Origin: Citrobacter phage phiNP
Sequence record: OR565852
Reading direction: 5' to 3' (one strand)
Length of the DNA: 44,932 nt
Every line of letters starts with the position of its first letter. The first letter of the stretch is position 1. The translations under genes and the position numbers were made by a program. Shown here piece by piece: positions 32,221 through 44,932 of this stretch. The notes beneath the pieces were generated by a model, which was given only the letters and a program-made list of their open reading frames with translations, had not been told where the DNA came from and made no database searches.

Positions 32221-33089
32221 GAGCGAAATCCCGAGTTTTCTGGTAGTGAATAATCCACATCTTTGAAGGTTGCCCGCGCAGCAGGGCTGTGGTTGTTAAC
32301 CCACTCGCCATTTTTGCGCTCAGGGCGACCAGCCTTGTGCCATTTGTTCGCGGCCTGCAGGTAACCAGGGAATTTCGTTGGGTGAAACAGTGTCGTAGGT
32401 CGAAGGTACTCGGACATTTTAAAATCCTGCCCCCATTTCTCGGTCATGTACTCCACAACCAGAGTGAGTTCGTAGATGGTGAACCCCTCCCCCAGCCGGG
32501 CGCGAATATTCTCCAGCGACGTTTTCCCCACCTGATAACGGGATCCTGTTTTTTGGTTCAGAAAAGTCAGAACCTGTTTAGCCTGATCAGTGATCTCCAC
32601 AGCAGGGGCGGGTTGCGACGCAACCGGACAAGAAGTTTTTTTATCTGATGGATCAGTAGTTGATTTTACTGACGGATCCCCGCCAGATTCTGACGGGTGA
32701 AAACCGCCATTTTTATCAGATTTTGACGCCTCAATTTTTGACGGGTCAGATTTTGATGCGTCAGATTTTGACGGGTCAGAATCTGGCAGGTGAGAGAATG
32801 CCGCCGCCTGGAGTTTCCTCACATTAAGTCGATAAACATTGGATGCATTACGGTTACCCTGGCGGCGAGCGGTACGGGTCAACCACCCTTCAGCTTCCAG
32901 CTTTGCAATAGCCGTTCTGACTGTGCTGGACCCCGCCCCAATCTGGCGAGCGATAGTCTCAATGGACGGCCAGGAAACGCCTTCATCGTTACTGAAGTCT
33001 GCCAGGCGTGCCATGATTGCGACACTGGAAATCTTCATGCCAGCCGCCGCACAGCCATCCCAGACGTATGCAGATAATTTAACGCTCAC
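32217..33089 (-). CDS. Replication initiator protein (O-like) containing the origin iterons
   Basis: 290 aa; GTG start; N-terminal HTH-like region; central SDPSKSDASKSDPSKIEASKSD peptide repeats encoded by the iteron array. Confidence 0.6.
   Translation of the reverse strand: MSVKLSAYVWDGCAAAGMKISSVAIMARLADFSNDEGVSWPSIETIARQIGAGSSTVRTAIAKLEAEGWLTRTARRQGNRNASNVYRLNVRKLQAAAFSHLPDSDPSKSDASKSDPSKIEASKSDKNGGFHPSESGGDPSVKSTTDPSDKKTSCPVASQPAPAVEITDQAKQVLTFLNQKTGSRYQVGKTSLENIRARLGEGFTIYELTLVVEYMTEKWGQDFKMSEYLRPTTLFHPTKFPGYLQAANKWHKAGRPERKNGEWVNNHSPAARATFKDVDYSLPENSGFRS
32661..32790. repeat. Iteron array (putative origin of replication)
   Basis: Seven ~15-bp units of consensus TCAGATTTTGACGGG; five are contiguous from 32716 to 32790. 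Confidence 0.6.
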
Positions 33090-38867: not shown

Positions 38868-39190
38868 ACGAACAAACTACAGTTAAACACCTCCATTTCT
38901 ACGGTGCCAGCGATGATCTGCTGGAATGCGAAGGCGCGATCCGCGAGGAGATTGGTTGCTATAACTCTCCAGGCATCTATCACCTCAAATCCGCCGAGGG
39001 TGAAATGCAGGTTGTCGGTTATTACCTCGACTCCGGGCTGTGGAGCATCGGAATCAGCCAGGTCGCCGAAGATACGCCGCTGCCAGCGTGGCCCGTCACT
39101 TACGCCATGCATGAGCGTGGTTACAGTGTCCAGCTCACCATCACTGTGCCGGACGACGCCATTCTGGTTTTGTCAGAGGAAGATGAATGA
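38864..39190 (+). CDS. Hypothetical protein
   Basis: 108 aa; start overlaps the stop of the upstream ORF. Confidence 0.4.
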   Translation: MNEQTTVKHLHFYGASDDLLECEGAIREEIGCYNSPGIYHLKSAEGEMQVVGYYLDSGLWSIGISQVAEDTPLPAWPVTYAMHERGYSVQLTITVPDDAILVLSEEDE

Positions 39191-39918
39191 GCATTACCCT
39201 GCATAACGCCGACTGCTTCGATGTTTTTCCGACGATTGCCAGCGGTTCCGTAGACATGGTGTGTGCGGATATTCCCTACGGTACCACGCAGTGCTGCTGG
39301 GATTCGGTGCTTGACCTCGAGGTGATGTGGCATGAACTGTACCGCATCGCCAAGCCGTCAGCGGCAATTGTCCTGTTTTCGGCTCAACCGTTTACCGCGG
39401 TGCTGGTCGGCAGCAACCTGGCGGACTGGCGATCCGAGTGGATTTGGGAAAAAGGCAACGCCACCGGCTTCCTTAATGCCAAAAAACAGCCGTTGCGTGC
39501 CCATGAAAATATAGAGGTGTTTTATCGTCGCCAGCCGACATACAACCCGCAGTTTACCCATGGTCATGCGCGCAGAACATCGAAGCGCAAAACCGTCAAT
39601 TCGGAGTGCTACGGCAAAGCGCTGACGCTGACTAAGTATGACTCAACCAGCCGGTACCCGCGCGATGTGCAGTTTTTCTCGAGTGACAAGCAAACCGGTA
39701 ATTTCCATCCCACCCAGAAGCCGCTGGCGCTGGTTCAGTACCTGATCGAGACCTACAGCAACCCCGGCGATACGGTGCTGGATTTCACAATGGGAAGCGG
39801 TACCGCAGGAGTCGCCTGCCTGCGTGTCGGGCGCTGCTTTATTGGCATTGAGAAAGACACCTCAATATTTCAGGTCGCGCGTCATCGTATAGGGACTAAG
39901 CAGGAGCATGCAGCATGA
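39187..39918 (+). CDS. DNA methyltransferase (N4/N6 class)
   Basis: 243 aa; DIPYG motif-IV variant near the N-terminus, FTMGSGT AdoMet-binding motif near the C-terminus. Confidence 0.7.
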   Translation: MSITLHNADCFDVFPTIASGSVDMVCADIPYGTTQCCWDSVLDLEVMWHELYRIAKPSAAIVLFSAQPFTAVLVGSNLADWRSEWIWEKGNATGFLNAKKQPLRAHENIEVFYRRQPTYNPQFTHGHARRTSKRKTVNSECYGKALTLTKYDSTSRYPRDVQFFSSDKQTGNFHPTQKPLALVQYLIETYSNPGDTVLDFTMGSGTAGVACLRVGRCFIGIEKDTSIFQVARHRIGTKQEHAA

Positions 39919-40112
39919 AGATCCGCTGTTTTTTCGGGCTTCATAAATGGGTGCTGTTCAAGAAAGAGCTTCACCCATATCAATCTCTTAACGGACTGCA
40001 GCCAACTATTATTTTCCACTATGGGTGTAATGGCTGCGGCAAGACCAGAACAGAGACTCGCGAAGAGGGTTACTGGCATTCTTTTAAACCATCAGATTTG
40101 GAGCACATGTAA
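39915..40112 (+). CDS. Hypothetical small Cys-rich protein
   Basis: 65 aa containing CNGCGK; coupled to neighbours. Confidence 0.3.
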   Translation: MKIRCFFGLHKWVLFKKELHPYQSLNGLQPTIIFHYGCNGCGKTRTETREEGYWHSFKPSDLEHM

Positions 40113-40679
40113 TGAACCACCTTATGATCGACCTAGAAACGATGGGTAATAAGCCTGCTGCGCCAATTGTCGCGATCGGCGCTGTGTTTTTCGACCCGAA
40201 AAGCGGTGAGCTGGGCGCCGAGTTCTATGTGGCCGTCAACCTCGCCAGCGCCATGGATCAGGGTGCTACCCCTGACGGTGACACGATCCTGTGGTGGCTG
40301 AAGCAATCAGCGGAAGCTCGCGCTGCTATTTGTACCGACGACACTAAGAACATCGCCGAAGCGCTCTCCGAGCTTAGGTCATTTATTAGCCGTAACTCTG
40401 ACAAACCGCGTTATCTGAAAGTCTGGGGCAATGGCGCCAATTTCGACAACGTTATTTTGCGTTCAGCCTATGAACGCGCCGGCCAAACCTGCCCGTGGCA
40501 ATTCTGGAACGACAGCGACGTGCAGCACCATGGTGCTGCTCGGCAAACAGCTTGGTTTCGATCCAAAGCGCGATATGCCATTTGATGGTGTAGCCCACAA
40601 CGCACTGGCCGATGCCCACCACCAGGTGAAATATGTATCGGCAATCTGGCAGCGACTATTGCCCGCCAGCGCCGAATAA
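40112..40679 (+). pseudogene. DEDDh 3'-5' exonuclease interrupted by a frameshift
   Basis: Exo I (MIDLETMG) and Exo II (GNGANFDNV) motifs in frame of ORF 40112-40585; Exo III motif (HNALADAHH) in the overlapping +1 ORF 40431-40679. Confidence 0.5.
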
Positions 40680-40709: not shown

Positions 40710-40928
40710 ATGGAGAAATTTATGCTGAGCCTCGATTGTGTTCCCATCTCAACTTATTGCAAAGAGACAGGCGAAACTCCTGATGCGATCAACAAGCGCG
40801 TACAGCGCGGTGTGTGGCGTGAAGGGGTTCAGGTGCTGAAAGTCGAAGGCGTTAAGGAGAGATGGATAGATCTTAGTGAGGTTGCAAAATGGGCCAGACA
40901 GAATCGCCTAAACTCCCGCGCGGCGTAA
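40710..40928 (+). CDS. xis: Excisionase-like protein
   Basis: 72 aa immediately upstream of and overlapping the integrase gene. Confidence 0.55.
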   Translation: MEKFMLSLDCVPISTYCKETGETPDAINKRVQRGVWREGVQVLKVEGVKERWIDLSEVAKWARQNRLNSRAA

Positions 40929-42055
40929 CCATCAGGAAACATCGCAACGGTCAAACCATCAATATTACTTTTACATATAAAGGGGTGAAATGCCGTGAGC
41001 CTCTTTCTAATCTGGACGTAACCCCTAAAAATATCAAATACGCCGAGCGCACACTCGGCGAAATCCATAACAAGATCGAAAGGGGAACGTTTGTTTACGC
41101 GGAATACTTTCCCCGTTCTACCCGATTAAAAATTTTCGGAAACGCTGCCGCAGGAAAAACGGTGAAGATGTATCTGGATGAGTATCTGGTGATCTGCGAA
41201 ACGAGGAAGCTTTCCCCTTCGACAATAGGCGGGTACAAGAAATGCCGAAGCGCATTGTCATCACTTCATATTTATCCTGCAAGTGAGTTGACGCCGGCTG
41301 CATTGAAGACATGGATCCAGAACCAGAAAACGACATTGAAGACCATCCGAAACCAGTTGTCATTCCTGCGTTCTGCATTGGATGAAGCAGTGACAGATGG
41401 TGTGCTTCAGATTAACCCTGTATCTCTGGTAACAGCCTCACGATACCAAAGTGATAAATCAGAGGCAGAAAGTAGTTATGTGGTTGATCCGCTATCACCA
41501 GCAGAAGTTGATGCTTTGCTCTCTGCTACTGGCAATAAGCAGTGGGAGAATCTTTTCCGGTTCGCGATACAAACAGGGCTGCGTAGTTCCGAATTGTGTG
41601 CTCTTCGTTGGCGTGATATCGACTTTGTAGGGAAGACTGCCCATATCCAGAGCGCCAGTGTTGTTGGTGTGATCAAAGGGACCAAGACAAAAGCAGGTAC
41701 CCGTAAAGTTGAACTCACAGATGAAGCAATGTCGGCTCTGATAAATCAGAAACCGTTCACGTTCATGAAGGGCGCTACTGTCTTTGAGGATCCAAAGACC
41801 AATAAGCCGTGGGCAAGTGCTGATGCAATTAGAAAAAAGGCATGGGTGCCGACATTGCGAAAGGCTGGTATTCGGTACAGAAACCCATATCAGACTAGAC
41901 ATACATTCGCCACATGCCATATCAGCCGGGGAACAAACTTGTTCTGGCTTGCGACTCAAATGGGACATAAAGGCCCAGAGATGCTTTTCCGTCACTACGG
42001 CTCATATCTGAAGGAATATGATGGACAAACAAGCCTGAAGAAGATAAAAATATAA
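40889..42055 (+). CDS. int: Tyrosine integrase
   Basis: 388 aa; N-terminal arm-binding-type segment (LPRGVTIRKHRNGQ) and C-terminal catalytic region (RHTFATCHI...HYGSY). Confidence 0.85.
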   Translation: MGQTESPKLPRGVTIRKHRNGQTINITFTYKGVKCREPLSNLDVTPKNIKYAERTLGEIHNKIERGTFVYAEYFPRSTRLKIFGNAAAGKTVKMYLDEYLVICETRKLSPSTIGGYKKCRSALSSLHIYPASELTPAALKTWIQNQKTTLKTIRNQLSFLRSALDEAVTDGVLQINPVSLVTASRYQSDKSEAESSYVVDPLSPAEVDALLSATGNKQWENLFRFAIQTGLRSSELCALRWRDIDFVGKTAHIQSASVVGVIKGTKTKAGTRKVELTDEAMSALINQKPFTFMKGATVFEDPKTNKPWASADAIRKKAWVPTLRKAGIRYRNPYQTRHTFATCHISRGTNLFWLATQMGHKGPEMLFRHYGSYLKEYDGQTSLKKIKI

Positions 42056-42058
42056 TCC

Positions 42059-43846
42059 ATGTCTGAATTATTGGCCGCAATTTGTGGCCATTTCATGGAA
42101 CAAGGTACAAACATGGCAAATCCAATAACCAAACTAAAAAAAATAAACGTTGTAAAATTTCGAGGACTAAAAAATATAAATATAGAATTTGGTTCGCGAC
42201 TAACTGTTATTTGTGGTAAAAACGGCACATCTAAATCGACAATTCTTGGTATTATCGCCCAAATTTTTAGTTTTACAAAAGATCTGTCTAAGAACCCCGA
42301 GGTTGATTTAACACAATATAAGACATTAACTAATGGCACCTTCAAGTCAGCTTTCAGTGAACATTTTAGACTTTCAGAACAATTTGATACTGCAGGTTCA
42401 ATGGAAGTCAGGATTAGTGTTTATGATGGTGCATCTAACAAACATCTTGAAAAGCTAACATTGGGTCTATACAGCTCCAGTGACAGGGATAAATCAAGGC
42501 CAATAGTCAGGGGCAATGATTCCATACCGGGGAAAAACCAAAGTAGAAACGTCACTCATCCAGTTATTTTTCTAAGCTTAGCAAGACTTCTCCCTATTAC
42601 TCTACGGACTGATTACTCAACAAGGGATGTTCAGTATATCAATGAAAACGCAGATGATATAAGAATAATGAGCAATCAACTCTTACTTAAGAATAATGGG
42701 TGCTCAGTAACAGCCACGAAAGGGACGATCGATTCAATGGTCGTACACGGCGATAATTACGACCATCAATCAGTCTCTGTTGGTGAGGATAATGTTGGAC
42801 AATTAATTCAAGCAATATTTTCCTTTAAAAGGCTAAAAGAACTTTATGACGATTATCATGGAGGTATTTTATTAATTGATGAAGCGGACGCAGGTCTTTT
42901 CCCTGCTGCTCAGTTAGAATTAATTGACATTCTAGCTAAAGCAGCTAAAAAATATGACTTGCAAATAATCATGACTTCTCACTCACCATTAATAATAGAA
43001 GATATTTTCAATCGTTCCAAACAAGATGCCAACGGATTTAAAACAATATATCTGACAGATACTTATGGTGATATTAAAACAAAAGACAATCTATCATGGG
43101 CCGATATCAATGCTGATTTGCATGTTGAAACTGTAAAAATAAATGATGAGATTAGCCTTCCAAAAGCCAACGTATATTTTGAAGATAAAGAAGGCTTCGA
43201 TTTTTTCAAACAATTGATAATTGATAGAAGAATAAACAGAATATTGAATCCATTAGGAAACATAAATATTAGTTGTACTGCTATCCTAGATTTAATGGCT
43301 AGAAAAGTCCCTGAGTTTACTAACAAAAGCCTAGTTGTCTTAGACGGTGATGTTGCTCTCGATAACAGTGACAATGCTAAAAAAGCGAAAAAAGAGAGAA
43401 GCTTATGCTTGCTTCCAGGCATTCTTCCCCCAGATCAAATGATTTTTGAATTCTTATATAACTTACCTCCAGACGATATATATTGGAACAATAAAAATAG
43501 ATTTACAAAAGCAGTATTTATGAAAATAACAAAAGACATAATTACAACATTAAAAATAAGTAACTATCCTATTGATTTACTAAATTCTATAGAGAATTAT
43601 AAAAAATCAAACAAAAACCATGGCGGAGTGGTTAGAAAACTATTTAAAGATTTTGTCCATACGCCTGAGTTCCTAGCACAAGTAAAAGGGCGAGTTAAAG
43701 ATAATCCTTATCGATATTGGGTCGAGAAACACCCCGTAGAATCCGATAATTTCAAGCATGAATTAATCAAAAACCTTAAAATTATTATGACAAATGGACA
43801 TGGCGTTGACTCTGCTACCATCACTTCGTATCTGTCTGGCAACTAA
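42059..43846 (+). CDS. OLD-family-like ATP-dependent nuclease (ABC ATPase + putative TOPRIM)
   Basis: 595 aa, AT-rich; Walker A GKNGTSKST, Walker B ILLIDEADAG, H-loop MTSHSP; C-terminal candidate TOPRIM Glu (YFEDKEG) and DxD (VVLDGDVALD). Confidence 0.65.
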   Translation: MSELLAAICGHFMEQGTNMANPITKLKKINVVKFRGLKNINIEFGSRLTVICGKNGTSKSTILGIIAQIFSFTKDLSKNPEVDLTQYKTLTNGTFKSAFSEHFRLSEQFDTAGSMEVRISVYDGASNKHLEKLTLGLYSSSDRDKSRPIVRGNDSIPGKNQSRNVTHPVIFLSLARLLPITLRTDYSTRDVQYINENADDIRIMSNQLLLKNNGCSVTATKGTIDSMVVHGDNYDHQSVSVGEDNVGQLIQAIFSFKRLKELYDDYHGGILLIDEADAGLFPAAQLELIDILAKAAKKYDLQIIMTSHSPLIIEDIFNRSKQDANGFKTIYLTDTYGDIKTKDNLSWADINADLHVETVKINDEISLPKANVYFEDKEGFDFFKQLIIDRRINRILNPLGNINISCTAILDLMARKVPEFTNKSLVVLDGDVALDNSDNAKKAKKERSLCLLPGILPPDQMIFEFLYNLPPDDIYWNNKNRFTKAVFMKITKDIITTLKISNYPIDLLNSIENYKKSNKNHGGVVRKLFKDFVHTPEFLAQVKGRVKDNPYRYWVEKHPVESDNFKHELIKNLKIIMTNGHGVDSATITSYLSGN

Positions 43847-43854
43847 TTGATTGA

Positions 43855-43891
43855 AAAGGGCTTTATATGATGGCCATAAAGCCCTTTTTTT
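43855..43891 (+). terminator. Rho-independent terminator between the OLD-like and Dam-like genes
   Basis: Perfect 12-bp inverted repeat AAAGGGCTTTAT/ATAAAGCCCTTT followed by a T-run. Confidence 0.6.
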
Positions 43892-43925
43892 GATATACTT
43901 TAGACTTGACATTTAGAGGTATCAT

Positions 43926-44807
43926 ATGCGTTTTAACACCCCACTTCGTTATCCTGGCGGCAAAGGCAAGCTTTCTAATTTCATGCTTCGGATTATTGAA
44001 GATAATAAGCTTTCGCCTATACATTATGCAGAGCCATATGCTGGGGGTGCTGGTTTAGCGCTGAAGCTGTTACACTTAAATGTAGCTGAAAAAATCATTC
44101 TTAATGATATTAATATCTCAGTTTATGCTTTTTGGCACAGTGTATTAAATAATGCAGATCATTTATGTGCTTTAATTGAGGATACTGAAGTCACAATGGA
44201 TGAGTGGTTCAAACAGAAAGAAATAATTAATCATCCAAGAGACCATGATATGCTAACAATTGGTTTTTCTACCTTTTTTCTTAATAGAACAAATCGTTCT
44301 GGAATATTAAAAGGCGGTGTAATTGGTGGTAAAAATCAAGAAGGGCAATGGAAACTTGATGCTCGTTATAACAAGAGCGATTTAATTTCTCGGATTCAGA
44401 AAATATCAAAAAACCGTGAAAGAATAGATTTGTATAACATGGATGCAATTGATTTCATAAAAAAAATAGTTGTTCAATTGCCTAAAAAATCATTAACATA
44501 TTTAGATCCGCCATATTATATAAAAGGTAAGGGATTATATATCAATCATTATGAACATAGTGACCATGTTAATGTTGCAAAAGTAGTGCAGCATGATATT
44601 AAAACACCGTGGATTGTTTCTTACGATAACACTCCTGAGATCCAAGGTATGTATAAGGCATCATCATTAGTGTATGGAATAAACTACAGTGCTCAAGATC
44701 GATATAAGGGCTCAGAAGTGATGTTCTTCAGTAAACGATTGAAAGTCTTTAAAACCGATGATCCAACTAAGGTAAAAGCACCTACCAATAAAAATGCTAT
44801 GAGCTAG
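43926..44807 (+). CDS. Dam-like (D12 class) N6-adenine DNA methyltransferase
   Basis: 293 aa, AT-rich; N-terminal YPGGKGKL, AEPYAGGAG AdoMet motif, FFLNRTNRSG, DPPYY catalytic motif. Confidence 0.75.
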   Translation: MRFNTPLRYPGGKGKLSNFMLRIIEDNKLSPIHYAEPYAGGAGLALKLLHLNVAEKIILNDINISVYAFWHSVLNNADHLCALIEDTEVTMDEWFKQKEIINHPRDHDMLTIGFSTFFLNRTNRSGILKGGVIGGKNQEGQWKLDARYNKSDLISRIQKISKNRERIDLYNMDAIDFIKKIVVQLPKKSLTYLDPPYYIKGKGLYINHYEHSDHVNVAKVVQHDIKTPWIVSYDNTPEIQGMYKASSLVYGINYSAQDRYKGSEVMFFSKRLKVFKTDDPTKVKAPTNKNAMS

Positions 44808-44896
44808 ACGACTACCCACGGACAGAAAAAGCGCCGTAAAAGAGCCGCAGCAAAGTCACTTTTTAATAAATCATTTTTAATCAAAAAGATAATAAG

Positions 44897-44932
44897 TTTC
44901 GGACGCTGGTTCAACTCCCGCCAGCTCCACCA
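44897..44932 (+). repeat. attR; partial copy of the ssrA 3' end
   Basis: 36 nt TTTCGGACGCTGGTTCAACTCCCGCCAGCTCCACCA; final 25 nt are identical to 1-25; one mismatch to the remembered ssrA sequence; upstream flank is phage coding DNA. Confidence 0.7.

Follow-up and report, generated by a model that had tools for sequence, protein, structure and literature searches.

A PD-lambda-5 family methylase paired with an ABC-ATPase/TOPRIM-like protein in Citrobacter phage phiNP: a probable unnamed sister of a known defence system

Introduction

PD-lambda-5 is a defence system that was obtained by functional selection from Escherichia coli ECOR7 and validated experimentally. It is comprised of a ParB/HEPN protein and a methyltransferase. 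PD-lambda-5 protects against nearly all phages tested, and its cloning needed a host deleted for the region containing mrr (Vassallo et al., 2022). Here we describe a related pair of genes in Citrobacter phage phiNP. The DNA analysed, referred to below as the window, is a stretch of 44,932 nucleotides (record OR565852) that holds the whole phiNP prophage of Citrobacter rodentium from attL to attR. Between the integrase gene and attR, phiNP carries a gene for an ABC-ATPase with a TOPRIM-like domain, followed by a gene for a D12-class methylase of the PD-Lambda-5_B family.

The ATPase has described counterparts of its own. HEC-04 is a validated single-gene fusion of an ABC-ATPase and a TOPRIM domain. 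Its defence activity needs the Walker A residue K62 and the residues E319, D375 and D377; it is toxic when induced, and it was discovered within Hma systems, which contain a methylase (Payne et al., 2024, preprint). IbfA of the IncI1 plasmids is a HEC-04 homologue that behaves as an abortive-infection factor. Other effectors that join an ABC-ATPase to a nuclease include PARIS, which senses Ocr, and retron Eco8, which senses SSB.

Comparison across genomes shows the phiNP genes to be a genuine two-gene module, ancient and mobile. The module is most likely a sister of PD-lambda-5 that has no name yet, with an ATPase-TOPRIM protein in place of the ParB/HEPN partner. What is new is the pairing itself, as an unnamed variant; the methylase family and the OLD-like kind of effector are known, and the pair is not a new category. 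This view builds on the identities and domain architecture of the two genes, on conserved residues of catalytic type, on a tight and ancient linkage, on the swapping of partners, and on an asymmetric pattern of decay.

A Conserved Pair of Genes

Relatives of the phiNP ATPase were scanned for a neighbouring methylase in 80 IMG/VR loci (38-100% identity) and in further loci from other look-ups; once clustered, these ATPases span 31-100% identity to that of phiNP. A PD-Lambda-5_B-type methylase was adjacent in 46 of 47 clusters at 90% identity and in 32 of 33 at 70%. The methylase usually lies downstream of the ATPase on the same strand. The gap between the two genes is often 2-40 base pairs (bp), with several of only 2-12 bp, and the identity of the methylase drops in step with that of the ATPase from locus to locus. 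The settings in which the pair occurs are diverse. It follows the integrase gene in phiNP and in 85 E. coli genomes, and a cI-like repressor gene in Pseudomonas, while in Yersinia it lies between the lysis genes and Q. It is also found in a P2-like Vibrio phage, next to TnsE in a Tn7-like element, and, at 25% identity, between the repressor and integrase genes of a Streptococcus phage. In Acinetobacter baumannii it occupies a chromosomal site with no phage genes called in its flanks.

The A. baumannii copies show how the pair decays. In a small and non-random display of contexts (loci L175-L194; also L049), the ATPase was frameshifted, interrupted by an insertion sequence or missing in 5 of 10 distinct contexts with an intact methylase. 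An intact methylase was kept in all 10 contexts with an intact ATPase, and decay in the reverse direction was not seen. The A. baumannii version is extremely common, with exact copies in thousands of assemblies; the index has 8238 blocks with the exact methylase and 6156 with its ATPase. Such an asymmetry, with the ATPase lost and the methylase retained, would be expected of a nuclease that does harm when its methylase is missing, as in restriction-modification systems.

Two Alternative Partners of One Methylase

The association was also followed from the side of the methylase. Among 80 viral methylase loci, 33 had the ATPase adjacent, 35 had PD-Lambda-5_A, 2 had neither, and 10 had flanks too short to tell; the methylase therefore stood without either partner in just 2 of 70 informative viral loci. 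A set of 80 genome loci from many phyla, including archaea, gave 39 with PD-Lambda-5_A, 18 with the ATPase, 3 with both, 15 unassigned and 5 with flanks that were too short. Seven of the 15 unassigned genome loci have partial PD-Lambda-5_A matches just beyond the distance limit. In the Vibrio phage ValB1MD-2 (L275), two short hypothetical genes come after that for the methylase; together they might represent a PD-Lambda-5_A that has been split.

In a rough neighbour-joining tree, methylases of the two partner types are interleaved. Several lineages carry three-gene loci, in several gene orders, with PD-Lambda-5_A, the methylase and the ATPase-TOPRIM protein side by side (L008 and L009 of Enterovibrio, L053, L063, L091 and L256). 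One of these, L091, adjoins a TnsE_C gene of a Tn7-like element. The partnership of the methylase with one or other of two unrelated effectors is thus nearly obligate. Both effectors are described as fusions of an NTPase to a nuclease-like domain, and the tree and the three-gene loci indicate that they have been swapped repeatedly. phiNP itself has one effector type. A tblastn comparison of four PD-Lambda-5_A variants with the whole window gave no match at E 0.01 or better, and no PD-Lambda-5_A model is among the 25 best PADLOC matches of the ATPase, all of which have E values of 7e-12 or better.

The preliminary description of this locus had weighed a methylation-gated module against two independent cargo genes and had proposed conservation of the pair as a check. 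The co-occurrence holds. Because the methylase is adjacent in 32 of 33 clusters, and because it is almost never without one of the two effectors, comparative genomics favours a coupled module over two independent cargo genes.

The ATPase and Its TOPRIM-Like Domain

The ATPase gene occupies positions 42113..43846 on the plus strand and encodes 577 amino acids (aa): an ABC-ATPase, a TOPRIM-like domain and a helical C-terminal bundle. It is the proposed nuclease effector. An alternative upstream ATG at 42059 gives an open reading frame of 595 aa (42059-43846). The phiNP database entry uses this longer form, which is 100% identical to the 'AAA family ATPase [Citrobacter phage phiNP]'. The ATG at 42113 is the likelier start, since most homologues and the RefSeq annotations of E. 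coli have 577 aa and a Shine-Dalgarno-like AAGG precedes this ATG. A TGGCCA hexamer lies at 42085-42090, 28 nucleotides (nt) upstream of the likely start. It is kept in the closest E. coli relatives (L001, L015) and is not kept upstream of the ATPase gene in the wider family (3 of 66).

The N-terminal part is readily recognised. Pfam places AAA_15 (1.5e-16) and AAA_21 (2e-12) there. The PADLOC models PtuA, AriA, GajA and HEC-04 match the protein mainly in its ATPase part, and the PDB chains of PtuA, OLD, AriA and Rad50 match by sequence in this part alone. The ABC-ATPase motifs that had been read from the letters are where they were placed, and they are invariant in the family. Walker A (GKNGTSKST, 42215..42241, plus strand) is invariant in 30 homologues. 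Walker B (LLIDEADAG, 42869..42895, plus strand), with invariant D256 and E257 in the numbering of the 577-aa form, aligns to the Walker B of PtuA. The H-loop (TSHSP, 42974..42988, plus strand) has an invariant H290.

The C-terminal part had been proposed to form a TOPRIM nuclease from a Glu and a DxD. The residues are consistent with this. The first acidic motif (VYFEDKEG, 43172..43195, plus strand) carries E357 and D358, which are E375 and D376 in the 595-aa numbering. It stands where strand beta-1 of the C-terminal alpha/beta domain ends and is invariant in 34 diverse C-terminal domains. The DxD (VLDGDV, 43337..43354, plus strand) supplies D411 and D413 (577-aa numbering), both also invariant. 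The Glu and the DxD are 54 residues apart in the phiNP protein versus 56 in the E319/D375/D377 triad of HEC-04.

The predicted fold agrees, with modest scores. A full-length AlphaFold2 model of the protein has a predicted local distance difference test score (pLDDT) of 86, and its top Foldseek matches are the Thermus scotoductus OLD (Ts OLD, 6P74) and GajA, over about 600 columns. The C-terminal 248 residues, modelled separately from 34 diverse sequences, have a pLDDT of 92.6; in the model an alpha/beta domain with four strands leads into a helical bundle. The top three Foldseek matches of this domain are the C-terminal region of the Xanthomonas campestris (Xcc) OLD protein with a probability of 0.84; it is the only match of appreciable probability, and the scores are modest. 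AriB and GajA are also among the top structural matches.

Profile comparisons of the C-terminal domain were less clear. The C-terminal domains of 20 of 34 relatives match the HEC-04 PADLOC model (best E 1.5e-7), which lends the TOPRIM-like assignment independent support at the sequence level; the domain of phiNP itself has no match to that model at E 0.05. Pfam found nothing relevant in five C-terminal domains at E values up to 10, with no OLD or TOPRIM match. The C-terminal profile gave chance matches only against PDB sequences. When family profiles were aligned to P2 Old with hhalign, only the ATPase aligned and the C-terminal profile found nothing, so that sequence-level membership of the OLD TOPRIM family is not claimed. 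Membership of HEC-04 was also tried with ten homologues (504-615 aa, about 29-42% identical to phiNP) and was rejected, since only one of them reached 1e-20 against HEC-04. The IncI1 ibfA gene was not picked up by tblastn against plasmids. The TOPRIM assignment of the preliminary description thus has the invariant residues and moderate structural scores in its favour, and no sequence profile supports it for phiNP's own domain. We take the protein to be an effector of the OLD-like, ATPase-TOPRIM kind, distantly related to HEC-04 and not a demonstrable member of any named family. Its C-terminal domain is a putative metal-dependent nuclease.

The Methylase, Its Promoter and the Intergenic Hairpin

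The second gene (43926..44807, plus strand) encodes a D12-class (alpha) DNA methyltransferase of 293 aa, a predicted N6-adenine enzyme. It had been called a D12/Dam-type enzyme from its DPPYY motif, and Pfam confirms the class: MethyltransfD12 (PF02086) scores 65 bits against a cut-off of 22. Motif I (EPYAGGAG, 44031-44054, residues 36-43) lies N-terminal to motif IV (DPPYY, 44505-44519, residues 194-198). PADLOC assigns the protein to PD-Lambda-5_B (PDLC04018) with an E value of 2.8e-123 over residues 1-283 of 293, and its type II methylase model, MTase_II, matches at 6.6e-109. The enzyme has no DNA-binding extension. None of the published methylome data for C. rodentium concern the phiNP D12 methylase.

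Between the two genes lies a hairpin with a T run that resembles an intrinsic terminator (43853..43891, plus strand; hairpin 43853-43889). It has a 14-bp stem and a 9-nt loop, and a simple terminator scan missed it because of the length of this loop. The hairpin folds with a free energy (dG) of -16.4 kcal/mol (z -3.8), and none of 200 shuffled sequences folds as well. Together with its flanks it is 93% identical between phiNP and E. coli, versus about 85% for the coding sequence, and a C-to-T change in the stem leaves a G-U pair. The preliminary description took such a terminator as an argument against an operon. The hairpin is real enough by these measures, and the argument from it is a local one: a strong hairpin with a T run occurs in 6 of 30 family representatives, and several representatives have gaps of 2-12 bp. 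A terminator as a family-wide feature is rejected on the same count. Since it is confined to the close relatives of phiNP, it speaks against an operon there and not in general.

The methylase gene also has a promoter-like site of its own, found by a consensus scan (43871..43899, plus strand). It has TGGCCA at the -35 position (43871-43876), a 17-nt spacer and the extended -10 element TG-n-TATACT. Its TGGCCA overlaps the hairpin, inside the loop and the 3' arm. TGGCCA is the most enriched hexamer upstream of methylase genes, where it occurs in 47 of 96 dereplicated regions versus 0.038 expected per 120 nt. It stands at a fixed distance of 17 nt from TAnAAT, with a TG two bases upstream of the latter hexamer. 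This arrangement is shared by enterobacterial, Pseudomonas and low-GC sequences that cannot be aligned in any other part, and it is seen with both partner types (loci with the feature include L002, L018, L026, L027, L042 and L101). At the -35 position TGGCCA is either exact or absent, and near-variants are rare. Upstream of the partner genes it is not enriched (3 of 66 for the ATPase, 1 of 22 for PD-Lambda-5_A). The signal is weaker in the genome set, with 13 of 80, and TGGCCA is missing upstream in the A. baumannii copy of the pair. Within the prophage there is no significant avoidance of the hexamer (11 sites versus 17.0 +/- 4.0 expected).

The TGGCCA palindrome may be the recognition site of the methylase itself, used for feedback control or autoregulation, because the enzyme has no DNA-binding extension. 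Methylation of this sequence has been reported elsewhere. REBASE-predicted alpha-type 'orphan' methylases with TGGCCA specificity are reported in Chania, and a 'DNA adenine methylase' of A. baumannii A118, with no obvious nuclease neighbour, gave TGGCCA modification; in neither case could membership of the PD-Lambda-5_B family be shown. Other TGGCCA marks are N6-methyladenine in some species, attributed or tentatively attributed to fused restriction endonuclease/methyltransferase enzymes, and N4-methylcytosine in others. A link of the phiNP methylase to the REBASE alpha-type enzymes was sought and failed, as neither the 120 best proteins nor the 80 genome loci include a homologue from Chania and the A. 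baumannii copy lacks an upstream TGGCCA. The TGGCCA specificity of the methylase is a lead only.

Comparison With Described Systems

PD-lambda-5 is the nearest relative. Both systems are two-gene modules borne on mobile elements and share a methylase family. In both types the methylase gene often has the TGGCCA-N17-TAnAAT promoter, and the three-gene loci hold both effectors. They differ in the partner, which is the ParB/HEPN protein PD-Lambda-5_A in one and the ABC-ATPase/TOPRIM protein in phiNP, so that the two-gene definition of PADLOC does not recognise the phiNP locus. The preliminary description had found no canonical system in the pair. This holds insofar as PADLOC has no specific model for the ATPase; it does not hold for the methylase, which belongs to a known defence family.

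The effector has a different set of relatives. The HEC-04 model of PADLOC matches the full-length phiNP protein at 2.5e-16, with the best stretch in the ATPase. That model has about 494 positions, whereas the phiNP protein is longer, with an extra helical C-terminal bundle. HEC-04 and IbfA act alone, whereas the phiNP-type ATPase is almost always linked to a D12 methylase. The class 1 OLD proteins, such as P2 Old and the Thermus scotoductus OLD, share with it an N-terminal ABC-ATPase and a helical C-terminal region, and their TOPRIM domain has a likely counterpart in the TOPRIM-like domain of the phiNP protein. They are also prophage-borne lysogenic-conversion genes, and Ts OLD is the best full-length structural match. 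Likeness at the sequence level is, however, limited to the ATPase, and P2 Old has no methylase partner. Gabija and PARIS have the same ATPase clade, likewise associated with a TOPRIM domain (TOPRIM-like in phiNP). In the preliminary description their partners had been noted as absent beside the phiNP ATPase, and this proved right. Between 40889 and attR there is no GajB helicase gene and no helicase domain was found; nor is there a separate DUF4435/AriB gene by the ATPase or a recognisable AriAB fusion. A methylase takes the place of these partners.

A functional analogy is offered by restriction-modification systems of types II and III. They too set a methylase, with its own promoter (predicted here), next to a nuclease (putative here), and the phiNP methylase matches the type II model. 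Decay of the nuclease with persistence of the methylase is common to these systems and the phiNP family, and an ATPase-nuclease beside a methylase recalls Res beside Mod. The nucleases of restriction-modification systems are of the PD-(D/E)xK or HNH type or work with an SF2 helicase, whereas the putative nuclease of phiNP combines an ABC-ATPase with a TOPRIM-like domain, and its restriction activity and a site shared with the methylase are putative too.

The Prophage Around the Pair

The window is a complete prophage because a 25-nt direct repeat stands at both of its ends and matches the published phiNP attP. The left copy, attL, is at 1-25 and reads GGTTCAACTCCCGCCAGCTCCACCA. The right copy, attR, is at 44908..44932 on the plus strand and is an exact copy of attL and of the ssrA 3' end. 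The published attP matches the ssrA 3' end, and GGTTCAACTCCCGCCAGCTCCACCA is its reverse complement. The tyrosine integrase gene (40889..42055, plus strand) encodes Arm-DNA-bind_2 and Phage_integrase domains. From 40889 to attR the only genes are those for the integrase, the ATPase and the methylase, the latter two on the strand of the integrase gene. The ATPase and methylase genes each have a guanine plus cytosine (GC) fraction of 0.34, versus 0.556 in the prophage core. Their description as two low-GC genes in a cargo position between int and attR is upheld, with the reading frames as placed. phiNP is an active temperate phage. It forms lysogens in E. coli K-12, and its use in engineering host strains has been proposed.

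Several other features of the prophage were noted. A second, unrelated DNA methylase is encoded at 39187-39918 (N6_N4_Mtase, 5e-27), and a gene with an Rv2179c-like 3'-5' exoribonuclease domain (3e-56) lies at 40112-40585, just upstream of the integrase region. The end near attL is a second low-GC cargo region. It holds a HicA toxin gene (59 aa, 643-822) and a HicB-like antitoxin gene (PF15919, 3e-45, 846-1256), with a DinI-like gene (241-540) and a hexapeptide acetyltransferase gene (1281-1835) as neighbours. At 32716-32795 there is a run of overlapping repeats spaced 15 bp apart, with units like TCAGATTTTGACGGG and four 35-nt copies in register, which could be iterons or an operator array.

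How the Pair May Act

That the two genes are functionally coupled in defence is highly probable. For the manner of their action we put a methylation-gated, restriction-modification-like mechanism, carried as lysogenic-conversion cargo, at a probability of about one half. The methylase, expressed from its own promoter, would mark the DNA of the host and of the prophage. The ATP-dependent nuclease would act on DNA without the mark, for example incoming or replicating phage DNA, and the methylase might guide it there, much as Res is guided by Mod in type III systems. The lysogen would thereby gain protection against other phages. The nuclease activity, its dependence on methylation, its target and the defence phenotype are what we infer for the pair from its genes and their relatives.

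Several observations weigh against such gating. P2 Old, Gabija, PARIS, retron Eco8, HEC-04 and IbfA have no cognate methylase and are mostly infection-triggered or abortive. HEPN domains are usually RNases, and a PD-Lambda-5_A described as ParB/HEPN fits simple DNA restriction poorly. The asymmetric decay comes from the small, non-random A. baumannii display. The sole exception to the linkage is a clade of 10 IMG/VR loci from a low-GC host (L075-L084), with no methylase within 5 kb of the ATPase. Its ATPase, about 40% identical to that of phiNP, is 615 aa long, is extended at the N-terminus by about 60 residues and keeps its catalytic motifs intact; the gene stands directly after that for a cI-like repressor. 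The nuclease is therefore not always lethal without an adjacent methylase. A more detailed joint reading covers both partner types and is less likely than not: a widespread, unnamed, restriction-modification-like immunity would have the D12 methylase as its hub and interchangeable NTPase-nuclease effectors (ParB/HEPN, ABC-ATPase/TOPRIM, or both), the OLD-like nuclease would be gated by methylation, and the methylase would tune itself through its recognition site, possibly TGGCCA, in the -35 element.

The same facts can be read differently. In a guard or abortive arrangement of the kind known from PrrC with EcoprrI, the ATPase-TOPRIM protein would be a latent suicide nuclease that is held inactive by the methylase or monitors it. 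It might act on RNA or tRNA, like AriB, and it would be triggered by a phage factor that counters methylation or restriction, for instance a DNA mimic or an enzyme that degrades S-adenosylmethionine; methylation itself would not be the self/non-self mark that the nuclease reads. We regard this as rather unlikely, with real points on its side. Effectors that join an ABC-ATPase to a nuclease typically sense phage proteins, as PARIS does with Ocr and retron Eco8 with SSB, HEC-04 works alone and is toxic when induced, and IbfA is an abortive-infection factor. The two kinds of partner that the methylase has each join an NTPase to a nuclease-like domain, and the clade L075-L084 keeps an intact ATPase without a methylase. 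A guard by itself leaves unexplained, however, why an active methylase is kept whenever the ATPase is intact and why the methylase is almost never without an effector, and no trigger is known.

It is improbable that the two are independent co-travelling cargo genes, a stand-alone HEC-04-like nuclease and an orphan methylase with an anti-restriction or epigenetic role. The strong hairpin with its T run and the separate promoter-like site between the genes in phiNP agree with independence, as does the ability of HEC-04 to defend by itself. Phages often carry orphan methylases, and another one is encoded in phiNP at 39187-39918. The A118 'DNA adenine methylase', treated as an orphan, did not protect a transforming plasmid; that plasmid has no TGGCCA site, and the relation of the enzyme to the PD-Lambda-5_B family is unverified. 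Independence is nevertheless hard to square with an adjacency that persists at identities as low as 31% (32 of 33 clusters), in different phyla and unrelated contexts and often with gaps of 2-40 bp, with identities of methylase and ATPase that fall together, and with a methylase that has neither partner in just 2 of 70 informative viral loci. Least probable by far is a role outside defence, in which an SMC-like ATPase and a methylase would control replication, partition or packaging of the phage. The SMC/Rad50/RecF-type head fold of the ATPase and the activity of phiNP as a temperate phage would suit such a role. Against it, the accessory position of the pair differs between phages and extends to a non-phage chromosomal site and a Tn7-like element, its GC of 0.34 departs from the 0.56 of the prophage core, the closest relatives of the ATPase and the methylase family are defence proteins, and the pair is often disrupted without loss of the element.

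Biological Significance

Defence-system finders annotate PD-lambda-5 by its two published genes, and loci like that of phiNP would consequently be left as an orphan methylase and an anonymous 'AAA family ATPase'. In the sampled viral contigs the ATPase variant is about as common as PD-lambda-5 itself (33 versus 35 of 80 loci). With this abundance and this definition, a sizeable piece of phage-borne immunity is therefore unannotated. A single methylase with two unrelated effectors also gives a handle on what the methylase contributes: it could set a self mark, serve as a subunit for targeting, or be the protein that is guarded. A member coupled to a methylase also makes it testable how nucleases of the OLD family tell self from non-self. 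If methylation gating is true, the phiNP effector would be the first member of the OLD family for which the reading of an epigenetic self mark is shown. Since E. coli K-12 can be lysogenised by phiNP and the phage has been put forward for strain engineering, its lysogens may acquire a new methylation and a new restriction barrier.

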